A stretch of 64,000 nucleotides of DNA from Patescibacteria group bacterium (lineage in GTDB: Bacteria; Patescibacteriota; Patescibacteriia; Patescibacteriales; JAQTRU01): positions 25,824 through 89,823 of the forward strand of contig JAQUPG010000002.1 in the NCBI GenBank assembly GCA_028716725.1, read 5' to 3'. Below the pieces are notes generated by a model. The model was given only the letters and a program-made list of their open reading frames with translations, was not told the DNA's origin and made no database searches. Positions 1,795 through 56,612 of the stretch are shown in pieces. Position numbers and translations under genes: made by a program. Positions within the stretch are counted from its first letter, which is position 1. Each line of letters opens with the position of its first letter.

Positions 1795-1870
1795 TGGTGG
1801 ACCTGAGGAGACTTGAACTCCTTACCTTCGCAATGCGAATGCGACGCTCTACCAGATGAGCTACAGGCCC
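1795..1870 (-). tRNA. tRNA-Ala (anticodon CGC) with encoded CCA
   Basis: Reverse complement reads GGGCCTGTAGCTCA...TTCGCAT (anticodon loop)...GGTTCAAGTCTCCTCAGGTCCACCA. It has the G3:U70 Ala identity pair, a GGTTCAAGT T-loop and an anticodon CGC. Confidence 0.85.
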
Positions 1871-3674: not shown

Positions 3675-3796
3675 GGGTTAGCTAATTAGTTACTTAAAAA
3701 ATTAATTGATTATTTAGAAATTGGATATTGAAAATTGATTGAAAATTGATAATTGTAAACTGAAAATTGTTTACGTTATGCGTTATGCGTTCCACG

Positions 3797-4783
3797 TTAT
3801 GCGTTTATTAATTCATAATCTCTCGTCCCCAGCCCAATCTTAGCTCCATGCTCCAATTGCGCATCCCCGTTTTGTTTTTCAAAATCTTTGCATTGCTTAA
3901 TTACCAAATCATAGGATGCCTGGTCAATCGCTACTGGATCAGGCGAAGCTAATAAGCCAATATCGCTAGTCATTGGGCTCATCTCTTCGTTGGCGCAATC
4001 GCATTTTTCCGTAATGTTTATTAAAAAATTTATATAAAAAGCTTCTCTGCCTAAAACCCCGGCTAAAGCGTATTCGGCCAGCCTTTTTCTAAAAACATTT
4101 ACGTCTTTTTCTCCCCAGGGAATGGAAATCGCGCCCGTCGGACAAACCGAAATGCATTTTGAACAGCTAATGCATTTATCGGTATTGATCTTGGCTTTGC
4201 CGCTATTGTCAAAAGCAATCGCTCCCACCGGGCAATTAGCAATACAAGCGCCGCAAGCCGAGCATTTTTCTGGCTTAACCTGGTGTTTGATAAACGCGTG
4301 CAGAGCCAGTTTCCCTCTTCTGCCCGCCAGGCCCATGGATAAATTTTTTATCGCGCCGCCGAAGCCGGAGCTGATATGCCCCTTAAAATGGGAAATTACC
4401 AATAATGATTTATATTTAGCCAGGCCCTTGCCTAAAAAGCATTCTTTAAAAAACTCTCCCTTGATTTTTATAGCGTCCACATCATCCCCAAGCTCGCCAT
4501 CAAGAATATCAATCTCGGCAAAATCAAAACCGTGCTCACGCGCTAATTTTTTATGCGTAGTTGCCTGGCTCCTCGGGCTCTTATATAAAACATTGCATTC
4601 AACTAAAACCGGATTTTTTACCATCCCGGCTATTTCTTTAACGTAGCCAGCCGGCAGATAAGTAACATTGCCTTCTTCGCCAAAATGAACTTTTATCCCC
4701 AAAGGCGCGGGAAATTCAGGCAATAAACTTTTGATCTTATTTAATTCGCTTAATTTAACAAAATATACTTTTGCTTTAGCCAT
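3797..4783 (-). CDS. DUF362-family protein with two 4Fe-4S ferredoxin motifs
   Basis: CSACGACIANCP and CISCSKCISVCP clusters inside a DUF362-like scaffold, 328 aa. Confidence 0.65.
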   Translation of the reverse strand: MAKAKVYFVKLSELNKIKSLLPEFPAPLGIKVHFGEEGNVTYLPAGYVKEIAGMVKNPVLVECNVLYKSPRSQATTHKKLAREHGFDFAEIDILDGELGDDVDAIKIKGEFFKECFLGKGLAKYKSLLVISHFKGHISSGFGGAIKNLSMGLAGRRGKLALHAFIKHQVKPEKCSACGACIANCPVGAIAFDNSGKAKINTDKCISCSKCISVCPTGAISIPWGEKDVNVFRKRLAEYALAGVLGREAFYINFLINITEKCDCANEEMSPMTSDIGLLASPDPVAIDQASYDLVIKQCKDFEKQNGDAQLEHGAKIGLGTRDYELINA

Positions 4784-4811: not shown

Positions 4812-4875
4812 CACCTCACCCCGTCGCTATCGCTCCTCCCCTCTCCTAATTAGGAGAGGGGTTGGGGGTGAGGTA
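4812..4875. repeat. GC-rich palindromic repeat, subfamily CCCCTCTCCT-AATT-AGGAGAGGGG...GGGGTGAGGT
   Basis: Near-perfect 60-nt palindrome centred on cctaattagg, intergenic between the DUF362 gene and cca. Related copies at 9737..9784 and 39511..39546. Confidence 0.6.
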
Positions 4876-4922: not shown

Positions 4923-6422
4923 TTATTTTACCCAAAATTCTCCCTTTAATTCTTTATCATCTTCCATTTTCTTTTCTTCAATTCTGCCTTTGGCTTTTTT
5001 CCTTAATTCGTCCAGCTCCATTTTATTCAACTCCTTGCTTCTTTTTTCCAGATATTTCTTATTATTCAATTCCGGGTCTTCAATCACTTCGGATAAAAGC
5101 ACGTCTAAAATCGCCCCGATTTTCGGCCCCGGAGTTATTTTCAGTAATTTTATTAAATCATCGCCGTTAATTTTAAGCATCTTGGCTGAAATCGGGTCTT
5201 TCCTGACTTTTTTCATCATATATTCAAGGTGCCGGAGTTTATAGGGTTTAGCCTTAGGCACGCCAGACCCGAGGCGGTCCGCCACCCGCAAATCGATTAA
5301 ATCAGCCAGGTTTTCCTCACCCACTTTTTTAATCAAGCGCCTGACCGAGGCTTCGGTTACTTCTCCGACATTATAATAAAACATATGGTGACGGATTAGA
5401 TTCGTTACCTTCTCCAAATCTTCGTTGGAAAATTTCAGGCGTTGCATTATTTTTTTAGCGATTTTAGCCCCGATAATGTCATGATTGTAAAAAGTGGCAT
5501 CTCCGCCGATAAACCTTTTGGCCTGCGGTTTGGCAATATCGTGAAGCAAAGAAGCGAATTTTACCCGCCAGTCCTTATTCGGGCAGTATTTTAAAGACAA
5601 AACCGAATGGTTAAAAACCGTGTAAATATGGTGCCGGTTCTGGTCAACCCCGACTCCCCGCTCCAGTTCCGGCAGGATATACTGCAATAATTTATTGTCA
5701 TGGAGAAACATTATTCCCTCATAAGCTTTATTGCTTTCCAAAATTTTTATGAGCTCATCGCGGATTCTTTCCTGAGAAACAAATTTAATCCCGCCCGCCA
5801 TTTTTTTTATGGCTCTTTCCGTCTTTGGCTCAATCGAAAAATCAAGCTGGCAGGAGAGTCTAATCGCCCGCATCATGCGCAAAGCGTCTTCCTTAAATCT
5901 GTCTTCCGGCTCCCCTACTGCCCGAATAATCTTTTTATCTAAATCTTTCCGCCCGCCGAACAAATCTACAATTTCAGCTTTATGACTAGCTACAGCATCT
6001 TTAAAATCCGAAATCCGAAATCCGAAATCCGAAATCCGAATTGCCATCGCATTTATCGTAAAATCCCGCCTCTCTAAATCTTTCTCTAAACTATCTTCAA
6101 ATCTAACCTCGTCCGGATGCCTGCGGTCGCTATAGCCCTGCTCGCTGCGGTAAGTGGTTATTTCTATGACGTCTTCGGTTTTATCCTCTTTATCCTTAAT
6201 CGGCACTAACACCGTACCAAACTTATTCTCATATTTACCTCCGGGGAAAACTTTCAAAACTTCCTCCGGCCGGGCCTTAGTAGTTACGTCCCAATCCCCC
6301 GGTTCTTTTCCCATTAATAAATCACGCACGCATCCACCTACAATATAGGCCGCAGAGCCCGCCTTTTCTAATTTTTCCGTTATTTCCTGAACATATCCCG
6401 GTATATTCATCTTCTTTTCCAT
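4923..6422 (-). CDS. cca: CCA-adding tRNA nucleotidyltransferase with C-terminal HD domain
   Basis: Head-domain motifs GGCVRDLLMG, DWDVTT and RRDFTINAMA. HD domain HHIYTVFNHS...LHDIAKP. Confidence 0.85.
   Translation of the reverse strand: MEKKMNIPGYVQEITEKLEKAGSAAYIVGGCVRDLLMGKEPGDWDVTTKARPEEVLKVFPGGKYENKFGTVLVPIKDKEDKTEDVIEITTYRSEQGYSDRRHPDEVRFEDSLEKDLERRDFTINAMAIRISDFGFRISDFKDAVASHKAEIVDLFGGRKDLDKKIIRAVGEPEDRFKEDALRMMRAIRLSCQLDFSIEPKTERAIKKMAGGIKFVSQERIRDELIKILESNKAYEGIMFLHDNKLLQYILPELERGVGVDQNRHHIYTVFNHSVLSLKYCPNKDWRVKFASLLHDIAKPQAKRFIGGDATFYNHDIIGAKIAKKIMQRLKFSNEDLEKVTNLIRHHMFYYNVGEVTEASVRRLIKKVGEENLADLIDLRVADRLGSGVPKAKPYKLRHLEYMMKKVRKDPISAKMLKINGDDLIKLLKITPGPKIGAILDVLLSEVIEDPELNNKKYLEKRSKELNKMELDELRKKAKGRIEEKKMEDDKELKGEFWVK
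6004..6038. repeat. (AAATCCG)x5 heptanucleotide tandem repeat inside the cca coding sequence
   Basis: Five perfect 7-nt units plus a partial unit (6003..6041). On the coding strand they encode RISDFGFRISDF within a loop after the RRDFTINAMA motif. Confidence 0.85.
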
Positions 6423-8899: not shown

Positions 8900-10642
8900 C
8901 TAACTTCTCTTTCTATAACTAGTATGCAGCACTTTATGTTCCAATTTACCCTGGCCTTCTAACCATTTTAAAACTTCTAAAACCCCCTTATTCTCATGGG
9001 CTTTTCTTATTTTTTTGCTTTTATCCAGCTTATACAAAGCAGCCGTTCTTTTTTTTCTGATTTCATCCGTGGTCGGAATCGGCTGGCCTCCCCCGCCAAT
9101 ACAACCGCCCGGACAGGCCATTACTTCAATATAGTCGTATTTATTTAGATTGGCTATGACCGGTTCTATATTGCCGATGCCGTTAACGACCGCCACTCTT
9201 AATTTTTTACCGGCCACGGGCACAATCGTTTCTTTCACCCCGTCCAGTCCGCGCACTTCTTTAAAATCAAGCCGGGTCGGGCAAATTTTTCTTTTATTTT
9301 TTCCGCAAGCTAAAAATTGGGCGGTGCGCAAGGCCGATTCCATCACTCCACCGCTGCCGCCGTAAATAACTCCGGCACCGCTATATTCCCCTAAAATATC
9401 ATCGGCTTTGGTCGGTTTTAATTTGGGGAAATTAATACGGTTCTTTTTTAAAAGCCAGGCCAGCTCCCTGGTGGTCAAAACGTAATCTACCGGGAAAAAT
9501 CCCTTTACTTTTAGTTCCGGACGCGTGGCCTCAAATTTTTTGGCGGTGCAAGGCATTACGGAAACGACTACAATATCTTTAGGGTTAATATTCATCTTAT
9601 CCGCCCAATAAGTTTTTACTATCCCGCCGAGATGAACATGGGGGCTACGGGCCGTAGTTAAATTGGGAATTAATTCCGGATGGTAAAACTCAACATATTT
9701 TACCCAAGCCGGGCAACAGGAGGTTATCATCGGCAACCTCTCCTCCCTTCCCCCTCCCCTAATTAGGGGAGGGTGGGGTGAGGTCTTTATTCGTTTCAAC
9801 AATTCTTCTGCTTCCACCATAGTCGTAACATCAGCCCCGAAACTAACATCAAAAATATAATTAAAACCAAGTTCTTTCAGGCCGGACACGATTTGACCGG
9901 TTAAAATTTCGCCATAAGCTAAATTAAATTCCTCGCCGATGCTTACCCGAATAGAAGGAGCAAATTGGGCGACAACAACTTTATTTTTGTTTTTCAGGGC
10001 TCTCTCCACCATTTCCCACTGGCTTTGTTCCTGGGCCGCCCCGACCGGGCAATGGACCGCGCATTGCCCGCAATAAATACAATCGATTTTTTTATCTTTA
10101 GTCGGCACTATCTCCTGGTCAATTCCCTTACCCTTCAACTCCAAATAATTAATATTTTGCAGAAGCGAACAGGCATCAAGGCAATTGCGGCAATCTATGC
10201 ATTGCGTGCCATCAATTTCCACGGCGTTGGCAAATTTATAAATTTTTCTTTTCCCCTTTCGGTCAGGAAAACGCTTTATTTCAATTTTATACCTTTCCGC
10301 CAAATCCAAAAGGCCACAATGCACATTCCAAATGCAAGTCGGGCATTTTTCAATATGTTCGGCAAAAATCAACTCAATATTTAAATTGCGCGATTTTTTA
10401 ACTCTTTCCGTATCAGTCCATATTTCCATGCCTTCCGCCACTGCCTTTTTGCAGGCTAGGGAAAGTTTTTTTCCTCCTTTAATCTCCACGACACAAATCC
10501 GGCAATTGCCTTTAATCGGAAAATCTGGATGGTGACAAAGTCCGGGAATGAATATCCCGTTTTCCCGCGCTACCTCCATGATAGTTCTACCGGGCAAACA
10601 ATTTATTTTTTTTCCGTTAATTTTTATTTCAATCTTTTTCAT
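8900..10642 (-). CDS. hydA: [FeFe]-hydrogenase catalytic subunit HydA (N-terminal 2Fe-2S and 4Fe-4S domains plus H-cluster domain)
   Basis: H-cluster motifs L1 TSCCPAW, L2 MPCTAKKFE and L3 EVMACPGGCIGGGGQP. N-terminal 2Fe-2S ferredoxin fold plus CxxCxxC clusters. Confidence 0.85.
   Translation of the reverse strand: MKKIEIKINGKKINCLPGRTIMEVARENGIFIPGLCHHPDFPIKGNCRICVVEIKGGKKLSLACKKAVAEGMEIWTDTERVKKSRNLNIELIFAEHIEKCPTCIWNVHCGLLDLAERYKIEIKRFPDRKGKRKIYKFANAVEIDGTQCIDCRNCLDACSLLQNINYLELKGKGIDQEIVPTKDKKIDCIYCGQCAVHCPVGAAQEQSQWEMVERALKNKNKVVVAQFAPSIRVSIGEEFNLAYGEILTGQIVSGLKELGFNYIFDVSFGADVTTMVEAEELLKRIKTSPHPPLIRGGGREERLPMITSCCPAWVKYVEFYHPELIPNLTTARSPHVHLGGIVKTYWADKMNINPKDIVVVSVMPCTAKKFEATRPELKVKGFFPVDYVLTTRELAWLLKKNRINFPKLKPTKADDILGEYSGAGVIYGGSGGVMESALRTAQFLACGKNKRKICPTRLDFKEVRGLDGVKETIVPVAGKKLRVAVVNGIGNIEPVIANLNKYDYIEVMACPGGCIGGGGQPIPTTDEIRKKRTAALYKLDKSKKIRKAHENKGVLEVLKWLEGQGKLEHKVLHTSYRKRS
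9737..9784. repeat. GC-rich palindromic repeat inserted in frame within hydA
   Basis: cctctcctcccttccccctcccctaattaggggagggtggggtgaggt. It encodes PHPPLIRGGGREER just upstream of the L1 motif and is a near-copy of the intergenic palindromes at 4812 and 39511. Confidence 0.6.
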
Positions 10643-11001
10643 AAACTCATTTGTTCATTTAACCAGCCCATAATAATTCCAACAATATAATCAACTTCTT
10701 CCTTTCTTAATTCCCGCCCAGCTTCTATTTTGTGCCATTTCGATAAACAGCCACGGCAACAGGTAGCAGTCGCATGCTGGGCAACAAATACCGGGTGCCC
10801 CCTCATGGGCGTTTGCTTGCCGTCATTTTTCGGATTAGTCGGAGCCAAACGATCTGCGATAAAATCATAAGCATGCTGCCGAATAATATTTTCACCCTTA
10901 TCCTCAAAATATTCTCTTTCTTTCTCTTTTAACTTAAAGCCTGACCTAAACTTTGATTTTTGCAACCGCGCTTTTATTTTCTCCCATCTTTCATTATTCA
11001 T
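10639..11001 (-). CDS. hypothetical Cys-containing protein (HATATCCRGC motif) between hydB and hydA
   Basis: 120 aa, translationally coupled on both sides (ATGA overlap with hydA, 3-nt gap to hydB). Not NuoE-like. Confidence 0.45.
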   Translation of the reverse strand: MNNERWEKIKARLQKSKFRSGFKLKEKEREYFEDKGENIIRQHAYDFIADRLAPTNPKNDGKQTPMRGHPVFVAQHATATCCRGCLSKWHKIEAGRELRKEEVDYIVGIIMGWLNEQMSL

Positions 11002-11004
11002 AAG

Positions 11005-12051
11005 TCATCTAAAACATTCACAAATCGTTTTCTTATCTAGCTTTCTTAAGTTTATTTTACTGGCTGGCATCTTAACCAAAACGTTATTCAGGTATGATTT
11101 AATCGGCACTGGCACTACGATGCCCAAACCGCAGAAAGCTATTTCTTCTAAATTAGTAAGTAACTCAGAAAAAAGCTGCCAATCCGGATTAGGCAAATCC
11201 ATCATTTCCCTTAAGCGATAAACCCCCTCCCGGCAGGGCGTGCATTTTCCGCAGGATTCGTTAAGAAAGAAATCAAGCCAGCTTTTGATTAAGTTCTCTG
11301 GCTTGTGCTTCATCATGCTGTAAACGGTAATTGAACCGGCTCCGCTTACTGGCTGCCTTAATTGCCTGCTTCCCAAAACTTCTCCTGAGGCTTCTCCGCC
11401 CACCTGGACAAAAAAAGGAAACCTCGGGTAATTCTTAGTTTCCTTTAATATTTTTTCAATTGTCCAATTATCCGGAAAGAGAAAAACGCCGGTCCATAAA
11501 CAATCGCCGCTGATTGTATAAAATCTTTCTTTTTTATACTGATTCAGAGCCACTAAACTTACATTATAAAAAGTTTCTACGTTATTAATTAAAGTTGGGC
11601 AACCCCATAAACCACTAGTTTGCGGAAAGGGAGGACGTAGTCTTGGCTCGATCCGTTTGCCCTCAATGGCATTAAGCATTGAGCTTTCCTCTCCGCCGAT
11701 ATAACCACTCTCAATCGGTTTTATAAAAAATTCAATTGGCGCTTTATCTATTATCTTAATTAAATTTTTACTGAATTTTTTATGGTAATTATGATTTATA
11801 TAAATATAAGCCTTTTTGGCTTTTAAAAAATCAATGGCTATTTTTATGCCACCAATCACTTTTTCGGGAAAATTTTCTAAGATATAGCTGTCCTTGGCTA
11901 CTCCCGGCTCCCCTTCGGAAGCGTTGCAGACTACGTATTTCTTCGCGCCCTTGGCTTTCTTAACCGCCTTCCATTTGTCTGCTACCGGGAAACTAGCTCC
12001 GCCCCGGCCCACTAAACCAGCTTTTTTAATTTTAACCAAGATATCCATCAA
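11005..12051 (-). CDS. hydB: NuoF-like NADH-binding flavoprotein subunit of hydrogenase (HydB)
   Basis: GRGGASFPVADKW, NASEGEPGVAKD (FMN site), GGEESSMLNAIEG (NADH site) and ESCGKCTPCREG (4Fe-4S). Confidence 0.8.
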   Translation of the reverse strand: MMDILVKIKKAGLVGRGGASFPVADKWKAVKKAKGAKKYVVCNASEGEPGVAKDSYILENFPEKVIGGIKIAIDFLKAKKAYIYINHNYHKKFSKNLIKIIDKAPIEFFIKPIESGYIGGEESSMLNAIEGKRIEPRLRPPFPQTSGLWGCPTLINNVETFYNVSLVALNQYKKERFYTISGDCLWTGVFLFPDNWTIEKILKETKNYPRFPFFVQVGGEASGEVLGSRQLRQPVSGAGSITVYSMMKHKPENLIKSWLDFFLNESCGKCTPCREGVYRLREMMDLPNPDWQLFSELLTNLEEIAFCGLGIVVPVPIKSYLNNVLVKMPASKINLRKLDKKTICECFR

Positions 12052-25177: not shown

Positions 25178-25266
25178 AATGGATGGCGCATAACTTAAAT
25201 AACGTTTTAATTATAAAACGTTAATAGGCTACGCGGTTCGTATTATGCGAAAATAAATTCCACTAA

Positions 25267-25643
25267 TATCAGGGCAAGCTATAAGCCGGATTCTGTTTAA
25301 ATAGTCATCTATCTAGTTCCGAAGTTACCCTCGGAATCAAGCGAGCCACTTTTTTCCCGCTCAAATGCTTTAGCATTCTGGAGTGGGATTTGCTCTTGCT
25401 TCAGACAGGGTTTACCGCGTCACTCTGTTACCAGAGGACGATCCAAGTAGCGTAAATTAAACGGATATCCGAGATCAATTTACACACCCTGGAACTTTTC
25501 ACGTTTGGTCCCGATTGCTCGGGACTAGTATAGTCTCTGTGGCACTTTCCCTAAGATTACTCTTGGTGGGCATTACCCACTGCCTTTTTAATGAAGTCCG
25601 GACTTTCCTCCCGCCCAAATTTTTGGGCGATTGACTATCCACT
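25267..25643 (-). ncRNA. rnpB: RNase P RNA (bacterial type A)
   Basis: Minus-strand reading shows P4 5' strand AGGAAAGTCCGGAC, GGGTAATGCC, GTGCCACAGAGA and P4 3' strand ACAGAATCCGGCTTATAG. P1 pairs tcagggtaagt with agcttgccctga. The P3 hairpin is cgcccaaaaatttgggcg. Confidence 0.8.
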
Positions 25644-25858
25644 TACCCTGATATTATTGAAATTTAAAGGACTAATTATACGAATAACATAGCACTTGAT
25701 AACTTAAAAGTCAATAAATTTACTATATTATATTTAATTTTAGCCAAATTTACTAAAAATAAATAAATTAAAAACCTTGACAAATTATAAATTATATGAT
25801 ATAAAGGAATGTTCAACATGCACCTTCAAAACCGAGAAAAAAACAACGAAACTCAGAT

Positions 25859-26968: not shown

Positions 26969-27038
26969 CCACTTCGCCTCGCTATTGCTCGGAACTTCCT
27001 GCCTGCCGGCAGGCAGGCAAGGGGCGAGACGAAGCGAT
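26969..27038. repeat. nested GC-rich palindrome containing the 24-mer acttcctgcctgccggcaggcagg
   Basis: cttcgcctcgc ... cctgcctgccggcaggcagg ... gcgagacgaag. The 24-mer recurs exactly at 35819..35842. Confidence 0.6.
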
Positions 27039-28032: not shown

Positions 28033-29199
28033 TTATTTTCTTATTTCATCCATTAACTCCATATAAAATTCCAAATTATTCAGACTCGCCAGTTTTGCTC
28101 CCAATGGCTCCCTTAATTTAAACAAGTGATGCAAATAAGCTTTGGAGTAATTGCGCAGTTCCGGCAGTTTGCTTTCCGAATTAATCGGACTAAAATCTCT
28201 AGCAAATTTAGCATTATTAATATTGACCGTCCGATAAAAATCTTTTGACATTTGCCTGCCCGCCGTAGCCTTGGCGAAGGCGGGGAATTTAGAATTTCTC
28301 TTCCAAAGGAAGAGTTTTCCATGCCTTCCTTCTCTTGTCGGAATTACGCAATCAAAAATATCCCAACCCATTTCTGCTGCCCGGACAATATCTTCCGGCA
28401 GGCCTATGCCCAGGCCAAAACGGATAGAATCTTTCGGGATTAAATCAGCCGTGAATTGCAAGACTTTTCCTAAAAACCTCCCGTCCTTATCAATTGGCCG
28501 GGCGCCGAAACCATAACCGTCAAACCCGATTTTTATCAATCCTTCCGCGCATTTTTTTCTTAAATCCAGTTCGGCTCCGCCCTGGATAACGCTAAAGAGT
28601 AACGGCCTCTCCCCTACTTTCATCTTCCTCCCCTTAACTTGCCTGTCATATTCCGCCCGGCACCTGGCGGCCCAGCTAATTGTGCGCTCTACTGATTTTT
28701 CTAAATCTTTTCGGCTAAATTCATTCGGCGGGCAATCATCCAAACAGACCATCATATCAACTCCTAAATCAAACTGGATTTGGATGGATTTTTCCGGAGT
28801 TAGCTCATGAGAAGAGCCGTCCAAAGGAGATTTAAAAATTACCCCCTTATCGCTTATCTTACCCATAGCCGGCTTCTTATGGACTAAGGAAAAAACCTGA
28901 AAGCCGCCACTGTCAGACAAAATCGGCCCGGACCAATTCATGAACTTATGGATGCCACCTTGCCTCGCCGAAGTACCACGAAGGCGGGTGGTTTTTTTTA
29001 TAATTTTCATCCCCGGCTGCAAATAAAGATGCAACGTGTTAACTACTAGGGCCTTAACCCCCATATTTTTTAGTTCTTCATTATCGGTAAGCTTAACAAA
29101 CCCCCTGGTCGCATCCGGCATAAAAAAAGGAGTCCTAATGCTCCCATGCGGTGTTTTTATTATTTTAGACTTTCCTCTTTTTATCCCCATTTCGTTCAT
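28033..29199 (-). CDS. tgt: queuine tRNA-ribosyltransferase
   Basis: TPHG..TP.FMP.AT N-terminus, the VMVCLDDC region and overall TGT length. Confidence 0.85.
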   Translation of the reverse strand: MNEMGIKRGKSKIIKTPHGSIRTPFFMPDATRGFVKLTDNEELKNMGVKALVVNTLHLYLQPGMKIIKKTTRLRGTSARQGGIHKFMNWSGPILSDSGGFQVFSLVHKKPAMGKISDKGVIFKSPLDGSSHELTPEKSIQIQFDLGVDMMVCLDDCPPNEFSRKDLEKSVERTISWAARCRAEYDRQVKGRKMKVGERPLLFSVIQGGAELDLRKKCAEGLIKIGFDGYGFGARPIDKDGRFLGKVLQFTADLIPKDSIRFGLGIGLPEDIVRAAEMGWDIFDCVIPTREGRHGKLFLWKRNSKFPAFAKATAGRQMSKDFYRTVNINNAKFARDFSPINSESKLPELRNYSKAYLHHLFKLREPLGAKLASLNNLEFYMELMDEIRK

Positions 29200-35721: not shown

Positions 35722-35872
35722 AAGGGGTTCGGGGGCCAAACCCCGCAATACTGGGGGGCAGGCTGAGCTAAGAATTGCTTGCCCGCCGAAGCTTTAGCGG
35801 AGGCGGGAGGCCCCCGAAACTTCCTGCCTGCCGGCAGGCAGGTTGCTTACTTTTGGTTACAAAAGTAAGTCC
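35722..35872. repeat. composite GC-rich structured element (gttcgggggcc ... ggcccccgaaac outer stem, the 24-mer palindrome, and a cttacttttg/caaaagtaag hairpin)
   Basis: Intergenic between parB and the GT4 gene. Shares the 24-mer exactly with 26994..27017. Confidence 0.5.
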
Positions 35873-37880: not shown

Positions 37881-37964
37881 AGCCCTGGTGGCGGAACTGG
37901 TAGACGCGCACGACTCAAAATCGTGTGGACGCAAGTCCATGAGAGTTCGATTCTCTCCCTGGGC
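37881..37964 (+). tRNA. tRNA-Leu (anticodon CAA), type II with long variable arm, no encoded CCA
   Basis: Anticodon stem-loop cacga-ctCAAaa-tcgtg, variable arm tggacgcaagtcca, T-arm gagag-ttcgatt-ctctc, acceptor gccctgg/cctgggc with one T-T mismatch. Confidence 0.8.
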
Positions 37965-38068
37965 ACGGATAATTTAAGATTTCAGATTCTAGAATTCAGA
38001 ATAAAAACAAACACAAAATCACAAGCCAAAACCAAGGGGGGGGTATTGGCTTTTTTGTTCATTGAGAA

Positions 38069-39442
38069 TTGAATCAAACCAAGATAGACAAAAACATTTT
38101 AACGGGAGGTACGGAAATGATTAAAAGATTTACACTGCCGGAAATGGGATCTTTGTGGACCGATCTTCACAAGAAAACCATGTGGTTCAAAGCTGAATTA
38201 GCGGGATTGTGGGCGAAAGCCAAGCATGGTGATTTTTCCATGGAAATCTATAATCTCGCCAGGAAAGTAAAAATCACGGAAGGCGTACTCGCTAGAGCTG
38301 ATGAAATCGAAAAAAAAGGAGACCATGATCTCATCGCGTTTGTTTTAGCAGTCACTGAACTGCTGAACGACCTGGTTAAGCCCTTTTTTCACACCGGCTT
38401 TACTTCATTTGATATTGAAGACACTGCCCTCGCTCTGATATTGCGTGATTGCCTTTCAATCATTCTGACAAAACTGAGGCGCCTCAGAAGTGTTTTGCTG
38501 GCGAGAGCTATTGAACATCGCTATACTCTGCAAATCGGCCGAACACATTTTATCCATGCTGAGCCGATAACTTTCGGATTCAAACTCTTGGGATGGGTTG
38601 ATGTGCTTGACCGTCATATCATAAGGCTTGAATCCTTACGTAAAGAAATCGCAATCGGCAAATTTTCCGGAGCCGTAGGTATGTATACTCTTGACCCGGA
38701 AATCGAGCGTTTGGCATGCAAACACCTCAGACTCCGGCCGGCAATGATTTCCACACAAATTATCAGCCGCGACATACTTGGTCATTATGCGGCTACTCTA
38801 GCGGGAATAGCTAACTCACTTGATCGCTTTGCGACTGAAATTAGACATCTCGCCGGCACGGATATCAGCGAAGTTGCCGAATTTAAGAGACCAGGGGCTA
38901 AGGGCTCTTCCGCAATGCCTGGAAAAAGTATGCTCCGCAACCCGATCAAAAGCGAGAATACTTGCGGGCTGGCAAGAGTCTCTAGAGGATACCTCATTCC
39001 TGCTTTCGAATGTGAGGTAACCTGGGGCGAAAGAACTCTCGAGAACTCGGCCGCTGAGCGCGTCTACCTCCCTGATTTGAGCATTACATTGGATTTTATG
39101 CTCAATCGTTTTGCCGAAGTTATGGAAAAACTCGAAGTCTTTCCTGCGCAAATGGAAAGAAATATTTGGCGAACAGGCGGTATTGTGTTCTCGCAACGTG
39201 TTATGATCAAACTCACCGAAAAGGGAATGCATCGCGATCAGGCATACGATCTGCTTGAAGCGCTCGCCTTGTCCGTTGAACGTGGCACTTTTACAACCGC
39301 AAATGGCGAATCTTTTAAAGATCTCGCATATGCAAATAACTCTATCGCGGGATTGTTATCTTGCGAGGAGTTAGACGAATGCTTTGATCCGAAATCGGCC
39401 CTGAAGCACATTGACGAAATCTTCTCAAGATTCGCAGTATAA
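38069..39442 (+). CDS. purB: adenylosuccinate lyase
   Basis: RFTLPEMGSLWTD, GRTHFIHAEPITFG and GSSAMPGK...RNPI...EN fumarate-lyase signature. Colinear with Bacillus PurB. GC ~46%. Confidence 0.85.
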   Translation: MNQTKIDKNILTGGTEMIKRFTLPEMGSLWTDLHKKTMWFKAELAGLWAKAKHGDFSMEIYNLARKVKITEGVLARADEIEKKGDHDLIAFVLAVTELLNDLVKPFFHTGFTSFDIEDTALALILRDCLSIILTKLRRLRSVLLARAIEHRYTLQIGRTHFIHAEPITFGFKLLGWVDVLDRHIIRLESLRKEIAIGKFSGAVGMYTLDPEIERLACKHLRLRPAMISTQIISRDILGHYAATLAGIANSLDRFATEIRHLAGTDISEVAEFKRPGAKGSSAMPGKSMLRNPIKSENTCGLARVSRGYLIPAFECEVTWGERTLENSAAERVYLPDLSITLDFMLNRFAEVMEKLEVFPAQMERNIWRTGGIVFSQRVMIKLTEKGMHRDQAYDLLEALALSVERGTFTTANGESFKDLAYANNSIAGLLSCEELDECFDPKSALKHIDEIFSRFAV

Positions 39443-39510
39443 ACACAATTCTGGAATTTTCGAGCGGCCTCCGACTTATCGGAAGCCGCTTTTTTTATTT
39501 CCTAAACAAT

Positions 39511-39546
39511 CCCCTCTCCTGGCTAGGAGAGGGGCAGGGGTGAGGT
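39511..39546. repeat. GC-rich palindromic repeat (cccctctcct-ggct-aggagagggg-caggggtgaggt)
   Basis: Third member of the subfamily seen at 4812 and 9737. Confidence 0.55.
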
Positions 39547-55205: not shown

Positions 55206-56612
55206 TCAATTCTTCATCTCTTCCAGCTTCACCTTAACTTCCTTGTTTTCACCCTTATGCAAAATCTTTAAAGTAATTTCATCTCCGACTTTAAATTTGC
55301 CGATCGCTGAAGACAGAGGATTATTGGCGTCAATTTTTTTGCCGTTTACTTCCAGAATAATATCATTTTCCGCTAACCCGGCTTTATCCGCTGGTGAACC
55401 AGGAATAACGGCCAAATCAGTCCGGTTTTCTCCCCGGACAATCAGGGCGCCGTAATCAACGCTTAATTTATTAGCATCAGCTATAGATTTATCAACCAAA
55501 ACATATCTTACCCCCAGCCAAGGCCTGACAATCCGGCCGTTTTTCTTAACGCTTTCAATCGTGTCTTTTAAATCATTAATCGGAATAGCAAAGCCGATAT
55601 TCTGGGCGTTCTGCGCGATGGCGGTATTTATGCCAATTACCTGGCCGGCCAGATTAAGCAACGGACCGCCGGAATTGCCGGAATTAATAGAGGCATCAGT
55701 CTGGATAACGCCGCTTAATTGTTCGCTTCCTAACCCGATCCCGCCGGCGGTAATTGAGCGGGACAAGCCGGAAATTACCCCGGTCGAAACCGTATTCCTG
55801 AATTCGCCCAAAGCATTGCCGATAGCGATGACAGTCTGCCCGACTTTTAAATTGCTTGAATCTCCTAATTCCACCGTCGGAAATTTTTCTCCCTCGCCCG
55901 CCGAAGCTTTGGCGGAGGCGGGCTCAATCTTTAAGACGGCTAAATCGGTGGCCGGATCCCGGGCCAAAACTTTCGCTTCATGTTTTGTTTCATCATTCAT
56001 TAAAACCGTATATTCCGCTTCTTCATCAAGAACCACGTGCTTGTTGGTGACTATATAACCGTCGGAAGAAACAATAAAGCCGGTGCCGCCCCCTATTTCC
56101 TGTTTCGTTGTGCCGTTCTGTTTTTGCTTCGGCGCAGGCGGATTGGCATTGGGGCCGAACAATTCATCAAAATTATCGCCGAAAAATTGGCGCAAAAAAT
56201 CGTCCCCAAAAGAATTATTATAATACTGTTCAACCGTGGGCAAATCCTTGCTGATAATAATGCTGACTACGGCCGGTGAAACTTTTTCCGCAGCCGTAAT
56301 AACGCCCGACTCCTCCTCTACTTTTACGATTTTCTCCCCCTGGTTTGCGCTTCCCTCTAACCCAGAACCAGCCGGCTGGCCGGTAGCAACCCCCTTTAAC
56401 CAGCTAAATAAATTAAATTGGGCGGCAGACGATACCGTGCCGGCCCAAAAACCCATTGCTCCCCCAAAAACAGAACTAACTATCATGGAAGAAACAATAA
56501 TGGTTATAAAAGTCTTCTTAAAATTGTTCTCCATATTAATTTTAGGATAAGGATGGGGAAAGATATCCTTTTTATATAATATAATACGAATTAAACCGCT
56601 TTCTGCTTTCAC
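55206..56612 (-). CDS. htrA: HtrA/DegP-family serine protease with PDZ domain
   Basis: Trypsin-like triad context and GNSGGPLLN. C-terminal PDZ. N-terminal TM anchor. Confidence 0.85.
   Translation of the reverse strand: MKAESGLIRIILYKKDIFPHPYPKINMENNFKKTFITIIVSSMIVSSVFGGAMGFWAGTVSSAAQFNLFSWLKGVATGQPAGSGLEGSANQGEKIVKVEEESGVITAAEKVSPAVVSIIISKDLPTVEQYYNNSFGDDFLRQFFGDNFDELFGPNANPPAPKQKQNGTTKQEIGGGTGFIVSSDGYIVTNKHVVLDEEAEYTVLMNDETKHEAKVLARDPATDLAVLKIEPASAKASAGEGEKFPTVELGDSSNLKVGQTVIAIGNALGEFRNTVSTGVISGLSRSITAGGIGLGSEQLSGVIQTDASINSGNSGGPLLNLAGQVIGINTAIAQNAQNIGFAIPINDLKDTIESVKKNGRIVRPWLGVRYVLVDKSIADANKLSVDYGALIVRGENRTDLAVIPGSPADKAGLAENDIILEVNGKKIDANNPLSSAIGKFKVGDEITLKILHKGENKEVKVKLEEMKN

Follow-up and report, generated by a model that had tools for sequence, protein, structure and literature searches.

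The 64-kb window analyzed here (the whole 64,000-nucleotide stretch of a Patescibacteria group bacterium, from contig JAQUPG010000002.1 of assembly GCA_028716725.1) carries hydA on the minus strand at 8900..10642, and the subject of this report is a GC-rich palindromic repeat that lies inside this gene at 9736..9784. hydA encodes the 580-aa catalytic subunit of a group A (CpI-type) [FeFe]-hydrogenase, an assignment based on Pfam, a PDB match and sequence motifs. Pfam analysis of the open reading frame (ORF) returned Fe_hyd_lg_C (6e-86), together with Fer2_4, NADH-G_4Fe-4S_3, Fer4 / Fer4_7 and Fe_hyd_SSU, and the top PDB match was 8a6t_A, HydA1 of the Thermoanaerobacter kivui HydABC complex (1e-137). 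The H-cluster motifs are whole, with TSCCP at residues 307-311, MPCTAKK at 363-369 and EVMACPGGCIGG at 506-517, and the characters of group A [FeFe]-hydrogenases (L1 TSCCP, L2 MPCxxK, L3 ExMACxxGCxxG and N-terminal iron-sulfur domains) are all present. None of the cysteines that bind the clusters varies, and neither do the L1-L3 motifs.

On the plus strand the repeat reads ACCTCTCCTCCCTTCCCCCTCCCCTAATTAGGGGAGGGTGGGGTGAGGT, 49 nt as bounded by its arms. It is a nested-hairpin palindromic repeat of the C subtype, lacking the long spacer seen in other copies, in which the arms ACCTCACCCC and GGGGTGAGGT enclose the hairpin CCCTCYCC-TAATTA-GGRGAGGG; the predicted fold of the corresponding RNA hairpin is -30.6 kcal/mol. 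An earlier note on this DNA had placed a palindrome at this point of hydA, and its presence is confirmed, the arms setting its borders at 9736-9784. Codons 287-302 specify TSPHPPLIRGGGREER, followed by LPMI and then by TSCCP, whose codons (9710..9724, minus strand) lie four codons 3' of the insert. The reading frame is unbroken, as had been claimed, although the insert does not stand immediately before TSCCP, given the four intervening residues.

Two sister copies occur in the window (repeat family D19). A full-length intergenic copy of the T subtype at 4813..4874 combines the two arms with a spacer of 14 nt (GTCGCTATCGCTCC) and the core CCCCTCTCCTAATTAGGAGAGGGG. Its neighbors are the stop of ORF 4923..6422(-) on one side and the start of ORF 3797..4783(-) on the other, and its predicted fold is -40 to -43 kcal/mol (z -6 to -8). 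A partial intergenic copy on the plus strand at 39510..39546, just past the terminator-like hairpin of ORF 38069..39442(+), comprises the inner hairpin with a TGGCTA loop and the 3' arm, but no 5' arm. The arm GGGGTGAGGT was found at all three copies, and the 24-nt core pattern has three matches in the 64-kb window, against 0 expected from dinucleotide shuffles. A scan of the window for GC islands was too unspecific at 41.6% GC. The two intergenic copies had been described as nearly identical to the one in hydA; both exist and both are indeed intergenic, but identity among the window copies is just 77-84% in a 31-nt register, quite apart from the extra spacer in one and the missing left arm in the other.

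HydA was compared across a set of 120 Patescibacteria orthologues. Gene order around hydA is conserved, and the compared genes are therefore considered orthologous. Four proteins that are 82-88% identical to the window HydA (P0004, P0005, P0007 and P0008) are insert-free and read R-x-K/N-NKGV-MPMxTSCCP, and two others (P0001 and P0003, 86-87% identical) carry the same insert as the window protein. That equally close orthologues have NKGV supports the lineage specificity of the segment that the earlier note had proposed. Filled alleles have 16 codons in place of four (AAT AAA GGN GTT, NKGV), a net gain of 36 nt, and in both PDB alignments the solved HydA structures show a 12-residue gap exactly at the insert. 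Identical insert junctions were found in three independent assemblies (the window, GCA_028711415.1 and ERZ27248897). It is hardly conceivable, then, that the segment reflects a chimeric metagenome join or an inactivated hydA pseudogene. Palindromes may confuse assemblers, and the window is probably part of a metagenome-assembled genome, yet the same insert with the same junctions recurs in all three assemblies. The ORF is also whole, its cysteines and L1-L3 motifs are kept, and purifying selection acts on the filled alleles of the window, L002 and L003, which share 86-87% of their amino acids and 60-64% of their third codon positions.

The repeat occupies the same HydA loop in at least four lineages, with differing junctions. 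The copy in L004 and L122 is of the C subtype, lacks the right arm and is placed before NEKKG; that of L005 is of the T subtype with a 10-nt spacer; that of L006 is of the T subtype and placed before DGV; and that of L118 has an arm and stem like the others and a TTCTAAA loop. Each of these distant filled lineages has insert-free sisters in a neighbor-joining tree. The earlier note had reasoned that finding the same segment in orthologues of unrelated lineages would make it an ordinary loop. Taken literally, such segments do exist, since PLIRGG-type peptides are present in P0011, P0015, P0055, P0079 and P0017; at the DNA level, however, these are separate copies and not an ancestral loop, because subtype, spacer and junction differ and insert-free sisters are found. 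In L005 the hydA copy and a copy in MnmA 9 kb away differ at 1 of 57 nt, which points more clearly than any other observation to recent copying within a genome.

The loop that precedes L1 is one of the two main indel hot spots of HydA, with extra residues in 60 of the 120 orthologues; the other follows query residue 183 in the ferredoxin-like domain (46 of 120). Length variation of this kind is what an ordinary fast-evolving surface loop would display, and its likeness to intergenic DNA might then be coincidental or compositional. We give this account practically no credence and regard it as refuted: the arms, stem and loop of the segment are common to more than 100 copies elsewhere, the match in L005 between copies in two different genes extends over 56 of 57 nt, and the number of matches expected from shuffled sequence is 0.

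Further repeats were observed at these hot spots. After residue 183, several orthologues carry the peptides PPLIRGE, PPLIKGE or SPLVRGD, and the DNA of this hot spot in L117:10001-11860 is a CCTCCCC-TTATCAAA-GGGGGAG hairpin. The L1 loop of P0060 (L117:10892-11017) holds a 40-residue insert, KLEIGNWKL...NTQYPIS, made of AT-rich GGAAATTGG / CCAATACC repeats that match an intergenic repeat on the same contig (L117:4953-5016). Similar repeats of the GAAAATTGA type occupy intergenic DNA in the window, at 3709, 12084, 17398 and 29205. Because other orthologues carry AT-rich repeats there too, the L1 loop is a general sink for repeats.

An AlphaFold2 model of the window HydA was built from 76 orthologues, with a mean predicted local distance difference test (pLDDT) score of 89.6 and a predicted template modeling (pTM) score of 0.89. 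Compared with HydA1 (8a6t_A) and CpI, the model has template modeling scores (TM-scores) of 0.88-0.90. Residues 290-299 form the sole segment with pLDDT below 50 and lie between helix 266-287 and strand 305-307, which leads into TSCCP. The insert is thus a disordered loop in the model, in keeping with the surface loop that had been foreseen, and it is probably flexible and exposed, at the point where the L1 strand has its N-terminal end and away from the H-cluster.

To define the family, one-genome-per-species contigs were scanned for the pattern CCCTCYCCTAATTAGGRGAGGG. At least 108 stretches were recovered, so that the genome-wide copies anticipated from the window amount to a large dispersed family. 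We aligned 115 non-redundant copies from among the matches listed, and all family-wide counts given here and below likewise refer to the matches listed. The common plan is ACCTC[AT]CCCC, a spacer, CCCTCYCC-TAATTA-GGRGAGGG, a second spacer and GGGG[TA]GAGGT. One spacer is short (~4 nt) and the other either short or 15-31 nt, the long form often bearing a small hairpin of its own, such as CCGCCAGCTGGCGG or GCGAAGCGA. With borders that are fuzzy, the element measures 49-86 nt (median 66). Both arms, which constitute 10-nt terminal inverted repeats (ACCTCACCCC / GGGGTGAGGT), are present in 81 of the 115 copies. Two subtypes differ by a compensatory pair in the stem: 84 copies have T-A and 30 have C-G, while 3 are mismatched. 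Density is about one copy per 10-20 kb. An Rfam scan at gathering and permissive thresholds returned no family at the element.

The hosts are mostly Patescibacteria (Falkowbacteria, Kuenenbacteria, Parcubacteria and 'Patescibacteria group' bacteria). GCA_041645555.1, whose hydA site is empty, has at least 8 copies elsewhere, and one of these lies on the same contig, in frame within MnmA. An exact 22-mer was additionally found in records labeled as Agitococcus lubricus DSM 5822 (an isolate), Latescibacterota, Chloroflexota/Anaerolineales, Bacteroidaceae, Cloacimonadota, Gastranaerophilales and Armatimonadota; such non-Patescibacteria records usually hold the hairpin and one arm. Among viral contigs the core was found in one only, and phages are therefore not an obvious vector. 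Cyanobacterial plasmids carry similar units of a hairpin plus GGGGAGAGG, including those of Pseudanabaena and Leptolyngbya, and one such unit, TCCCCTCTCCTTATAGGAGAGGGGTTGGGGGAGAGGT, is within an annotated cas10d gene (L116, Stanieria cyanosphaera plasmid NC_019765.1, 41680-41718). Many repeat copies also occur in records labeled 'uncultured Gammaproteobacteria' (L009, L015, L018, L027, L032, L033, L039, L044, L051, L064, L073, L077 and L083). These have 31-46% GC (31-36% at several metagenome-assembled loci) and Falkowbacteria-like proteins, for which reason the label is doubtful for some loci; KsgA of L073, for instance, is 73% identical to KsgA of L069.

Insertion into coding sequence is common in this family. 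Copies were scored as in frame when a stop-free frame ran through them and extended for 60 codons or more to either side, a test applicable to 107 copies. By this measure 43 of 107 (~40%) are in frame inside long ORFs and 58 are intergenic, leaving no more than 6 as possible gene disruptions. The in-frame hosts cover at least 15 Pfam families, those named by Pfam including MurG, a radical-SAM enzyme, Lgt, KsgA, GT4 glycosyltransferases, DNA polymerase I (PolA), RecG, HlyD, enolase, UvrC, UvrB, MnmA, NAD-dependent DNA ligase (LigA) and PGA_cap. Every intragenic copy yields the peptide PL(L)IR(R)G. This uniform reading arises because, on either strand, TAA closes one frame of the core CCTAATTAGG and TAG a second, leaving CTA-ATT-AGG alone open. 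Asymmetric copies point along or against their host gene in near-equal numbers (10 against 9), and this lack of orientation bias fits DNA-level insertion either way and speaks against a strand-specific role in the mRNA.

These counts also bear on whether the element is read at all. Bypass by the ribosome, or removal from the RNA, has a precedent in AT-rich mitochondrial genomes, namely the bypassed GC clusters ('byps') of Magnusiomyces capitatus mitochondria (PMC8811140), and the strong mRNA hairpin would suit it. Under bypass or removal, frame and stops would be irrelevant, yet none of the 43 intragenic copies contains a stop or departs from the frame of its host, every copy offers a single open frame, and candidates that break an ORF number 6 at most. 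We consider an untranslated element very improbable. The element is probably translated and not skipped, given that out-of-frame copies are almost absent; the peptides PHPPLIRGGG and SPHPPLIRGGGR would mark translation of the HydA insert.

Several in-frame copies are shared between orthologous genes. In MnmA, the tRNA 2-thiouridine synthase, the repeat is in frame at the same position in L005:1791-1847 and L071:7543-7614, in proteins that are 57% identical, and one of these two genomes is the one in which the hydA site is empty. LigA (L056, L101 and L114), PolA (L032 and L097) and KsgA (L069, L073 and L074) likewise have in-frame copies that share a residue position among orthologues. They persist at 64-80% protein identity, in a test that is biased, as these loci were found via the DNA pattern.

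Taken together, we judge it likely, with a probability of roughly 0.8, that the hydA segment is an insertion of this repeat family that is translated and tolerated. The segment would be one copy of a family of 49-86 nt GC-rich nested hairpins, a form of non-autonomous selfish DNA dispersed in Patescibacteria and spread by transposition or gene-conversion-like copying. Such a copy would have entered the short HydA loop between helix 266-287 and the L1-bearing beta-strand, exchanging NKGV for sixteen codons. Selection would then keep just those insertions that are read C-CTA-ATT-AGG (Pro-Leu-Ile-Arg-Gly) and leave the gene intact, the outcome in HydA being a surface loop, rich in Pro, Gly and Arg, that is translated and disordered and that the enzyme may tolerate. 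The element seems to be translated rather than removed, and presumably neutral to hydrogenase function. A selfish palindrome within an ORF, comparable to the Rickettsia palindromic elements (RPEs), is what the earlier note had envisaged, and lineage specificity, copy number and the modeled loop support it.

Several observations weigh against such a simple insertion. No partner transposase was found at the copies, although these genomes were not searched systematically for repetitive extragenic palindrome (REP)-associated tyrosine transposases (RAYTs). Neither the copies, whose flanking dinucleotides and hexamers also gave no flank consensus, nor the comparison of filled and empty hydA sites revealed a target-site duplication. 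Since both are lacking, we infer mobility and do not claim to have demonstrated it; as for the mover, a hairpin-recognizing transposase acting in trans, or gene conversion, is a guess that we offer with low confidence. Sequence conservation within the element poses a further difficulty. Among the window, L002 and L003 the hydA genes are 81-83% identical and the element is identical at 46-48 of 49 positions, with third positions identical at 16/16 inside it compared to 60-64% outside. L004 and L122, whose genes are 72% identical and whose genomic contexts differ, match at 46 of 50 positions in the element region, and at 16/16 third positions compared to 45% (saturated) outside. Ascertainment does not explain this synonymous conservation, because these pairs were found by protein homology and not by DNA pattern; loci from the pattern scan, in which the core is identical by ascertainment, were left out of the third-position evidence. 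No recombination tract was detected around the element, the flanks having third-position identity at background level, and transfer of a patch is therefore unsupported. The three filled and four empty hydA genes form a star tree, all pairs being 81-83% identical, and in bootstraps the filled alleles were never monophyletic and no other grouping was supported. Conservation above the level of a neutral passenger is not predicted by a simple 'junk insertion' model.

One way to account for these data is selection on the palindrome as a DNA or RNA motif, in place of passive carriage of a selfish passenger. It might bind a protein, act as a signal for the nucleoid or for replication, affect the stability of the mRNA or form a hairpin at which translation pauses; coding regions would accommodate it, and the peptide would be a by-product. 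Invariant synonymous sites (16/16 in three pairs at ~18% gene divergence and in one pair at 28%), conservation that ends at the element borders, subtypes that differ by a compensatory double change, the same 22-mer kept across very distant records and the strength of the hairpins (-30 to -43 kcal/mol) would all follow from selection on the motif. The even orientation of copies in genes, their patchiness among close relatives with empty sites being common, their low density and the failure to match any Rfam family argue the other way, and gene conversion or selection for transposition competence would give the same conservation with no benefit to the host. We hold a host function of this kind to be unlikely. 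The conservation points to constraint on the hairpin at the level of its nucleotides, to gene conversion that continues from other copies, or to a conversion-like process by which the element is acquired again and again at one junction. The last is not without precedent: in yeast mitochondria, the GC cluster that lies in frame in var1 undergoes unidirectional gene conversion (PMC8811140). A further proposition, that the palindrome is actively maintained, whether by homing repeatedly into the same hydA codon position through site-specific, conversion-like acquisition or by purifying selection at the nucleotide level inside coding regions, is possible, though we doubt it. If true, nested hairpins of ~60 nt that cross phyla would constrain essential genes of the Candidate Phyla Radiation (CPR) and recurrently reshape the same protein loops.

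As a translated selfish insertion, the hydA element invites comparison with several known systems, and the family is a new one of a known kind, selfish palindromes translated within genes. RPEs (Ogata et al. 2000, summarized in PMC10969869) are inserted in frame in many unrelated genes at fold-compatible positions. The likeness lies in a dispersed palindromic repeat with a large share of its copies in frame in unrelated housekeeping genes, translation into extra loop peptides that suit the fold, and a small host genome. The present family shows in-frame copies in many unrelated genes (43/107 copies, at least 15 Pfam families), and in HydA, the host modeled, the insert falls in a helix-strand loop with pLDDT <50, a fold-compatible surface position. 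RPEs are ~100-150 bp, comprise sequence families of their own and are confined to Rickettsia and relatives. The present family is set apart by length and taxa, being 49-86 nt, GC-rich on a 42% GC background and found in Patescibacteria and in records of other phyla. Several lineages, moreover, carry it in one and the same loop of a single protein, and its nucleotide conservation extends beyond synonymous sites.

GC clusters of yeast mitochondria are GC-rich palindromes that are mostly intergenic but in frame in var1, with size polymorphism, unidirectional gene conversion and shuffled modules (PMC8811140). They share with our family a GC-rich palindrome in an AT-richer genome, in-frame insertion into a gene and possibly a conversion-like mode of spread. 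They differ in being mitochondrial, in their sequences and in having AG/TAG terminal repeats that are read as target-site duplications, which the present family lacks. REPs and REP doublets forming hairpins (REPINs) are mobilized by RAYTs (PMC3116915, PMC3733652). Points of likeness are small GC-rich hairpins, inverted arms, presumed recognition as single-stranded DNA, no target duplication and repeats conserved above neutral. The GTAG/CGTC tag of REPs (PMC3733652) is absent from our family, which ends in ACCTC[AT]CCCC / GGGG[TA]GAGGT in 81 of 115 copies, and REPs are extragenic by definition, whereas ~40% of the present copies are intragenic. Miniature transposable elements with inverted repeats (MITEs) of bacteria that have been found intragenically include ERIC, Correia/NEMIS and BOX (PMC10969869, PMC2229807). 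Our family resembles MITEs in being non-autonomous, in possessing terminal inverted repeats and in that some copies are fused in frame to host ORFs. The usual MITE measures 100-400 bp, with target-site duplications (e.g. TA) and an identifiable parent insertion sequence, and our family showed none of these; between filled and empty hydA sites, by contrast, 12 nt are replaced and not duplicated.

Double-hairpin elements also occur in Allomyces, and we know of no bacterial counterpart of organellar double-hairpin elements that has been described. Repetitive hairpin-forming elements have been reported from sponge and fungal mitochondria (PMC2800124). Organellar elements of this sort are similar in their nested or double hairpins, their invasion of coding and non-coding DNA and their recurrent independent invasions, but they are organellar and their sequences are unrelated to the present family. 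What goes beyond all of these precedents is the very small size of the element, the repeated occupation of the same loops of a catalytic metalloenzyme and the conservation of synonymous sites. The earlier note was aware of no description of the phenomenon in such genomes, and in the open-access literature we likewise found neither this palindrome family nor the phenomenon in CPR/Patescibacteria, although this does not prove novelty.

CPR genomes are regarded as streamlined. If our interpretation is right, the repeat puts translated selfish DNA into core enzymes of these bacteria, namely DNA polymerase I, ligase, UvrB/C, enolase, MurG and hydrogenase, and would be a concrete source for many unexplained insertions in CPR proteins. 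Annotators and structure predictors should accordingly be cautious with PL(L)IR(R)G-type loops, which may be repeat-derived. The copies may further serve as natural markers of permissive loops of [FeFe]-hydrogenases (before L1 and in the F-domain) that would be useful for engineering. With synonymous-site conservation and the same loop repeatedly entered, the family offers a tractable case for how small palindromes move and persist.

In the vicinity of hydA, a DUF4186 gene (10639..11001, minus strand) stands between hydA and a NuoF-like gene (11005..12051, 348 aa); in loci L001, L003, L004 and L005, unlike in the window, hydA directly follows the NuoF-like gene. RNA genes of the window are a bacterial class A RNase P RNA (25266-25650, minus strand) and tRNA genes at 1798-1870(-) and 37882-37965(+).

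The window contains a second family of GC-rich palindromes, GCCCGCCGAAGCTTTRGCGGAGGCGGG, at 28255-28284, 55893-55922 and 35778-35807, one copy being intergenic; the Falkowbacteria loci L058 and L076 hold related copies. The ORF 28033..29199(-), which encodes tRNA-guanine transglycosylase (Tgt), contains one copy in frame, reading PAFAKATAGRQ within a stretch of ~24 aa that is absent from solved Tgt. A further copy, in frame in the HtrA/DegP-like ORF 55206..56612(-), reads PASAKASAGEG and corresponds to a 10-residue gap relative to DegP 22kg_A. Residues ~68-80 of the same Tgt, TTRLRGTSARQGG, coincide with a 10-residue gap of solved Tgt and may be another repeat-derived insert. A third hairpin, CCTGCCTGCCGGCAGGCAGG, occurs twice, at 26998-27017, nested between the arms CTTCGCCTCGCTATTGCTCGG and GGGGCGAGACGAAGCGATG, and at 35823-35842, adjoining a copy of the second family. 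Because this hairpin is nested in other arms once and beside the second family once, its placement suggests that the GC-rich hairpin elements are modular and shuffled.

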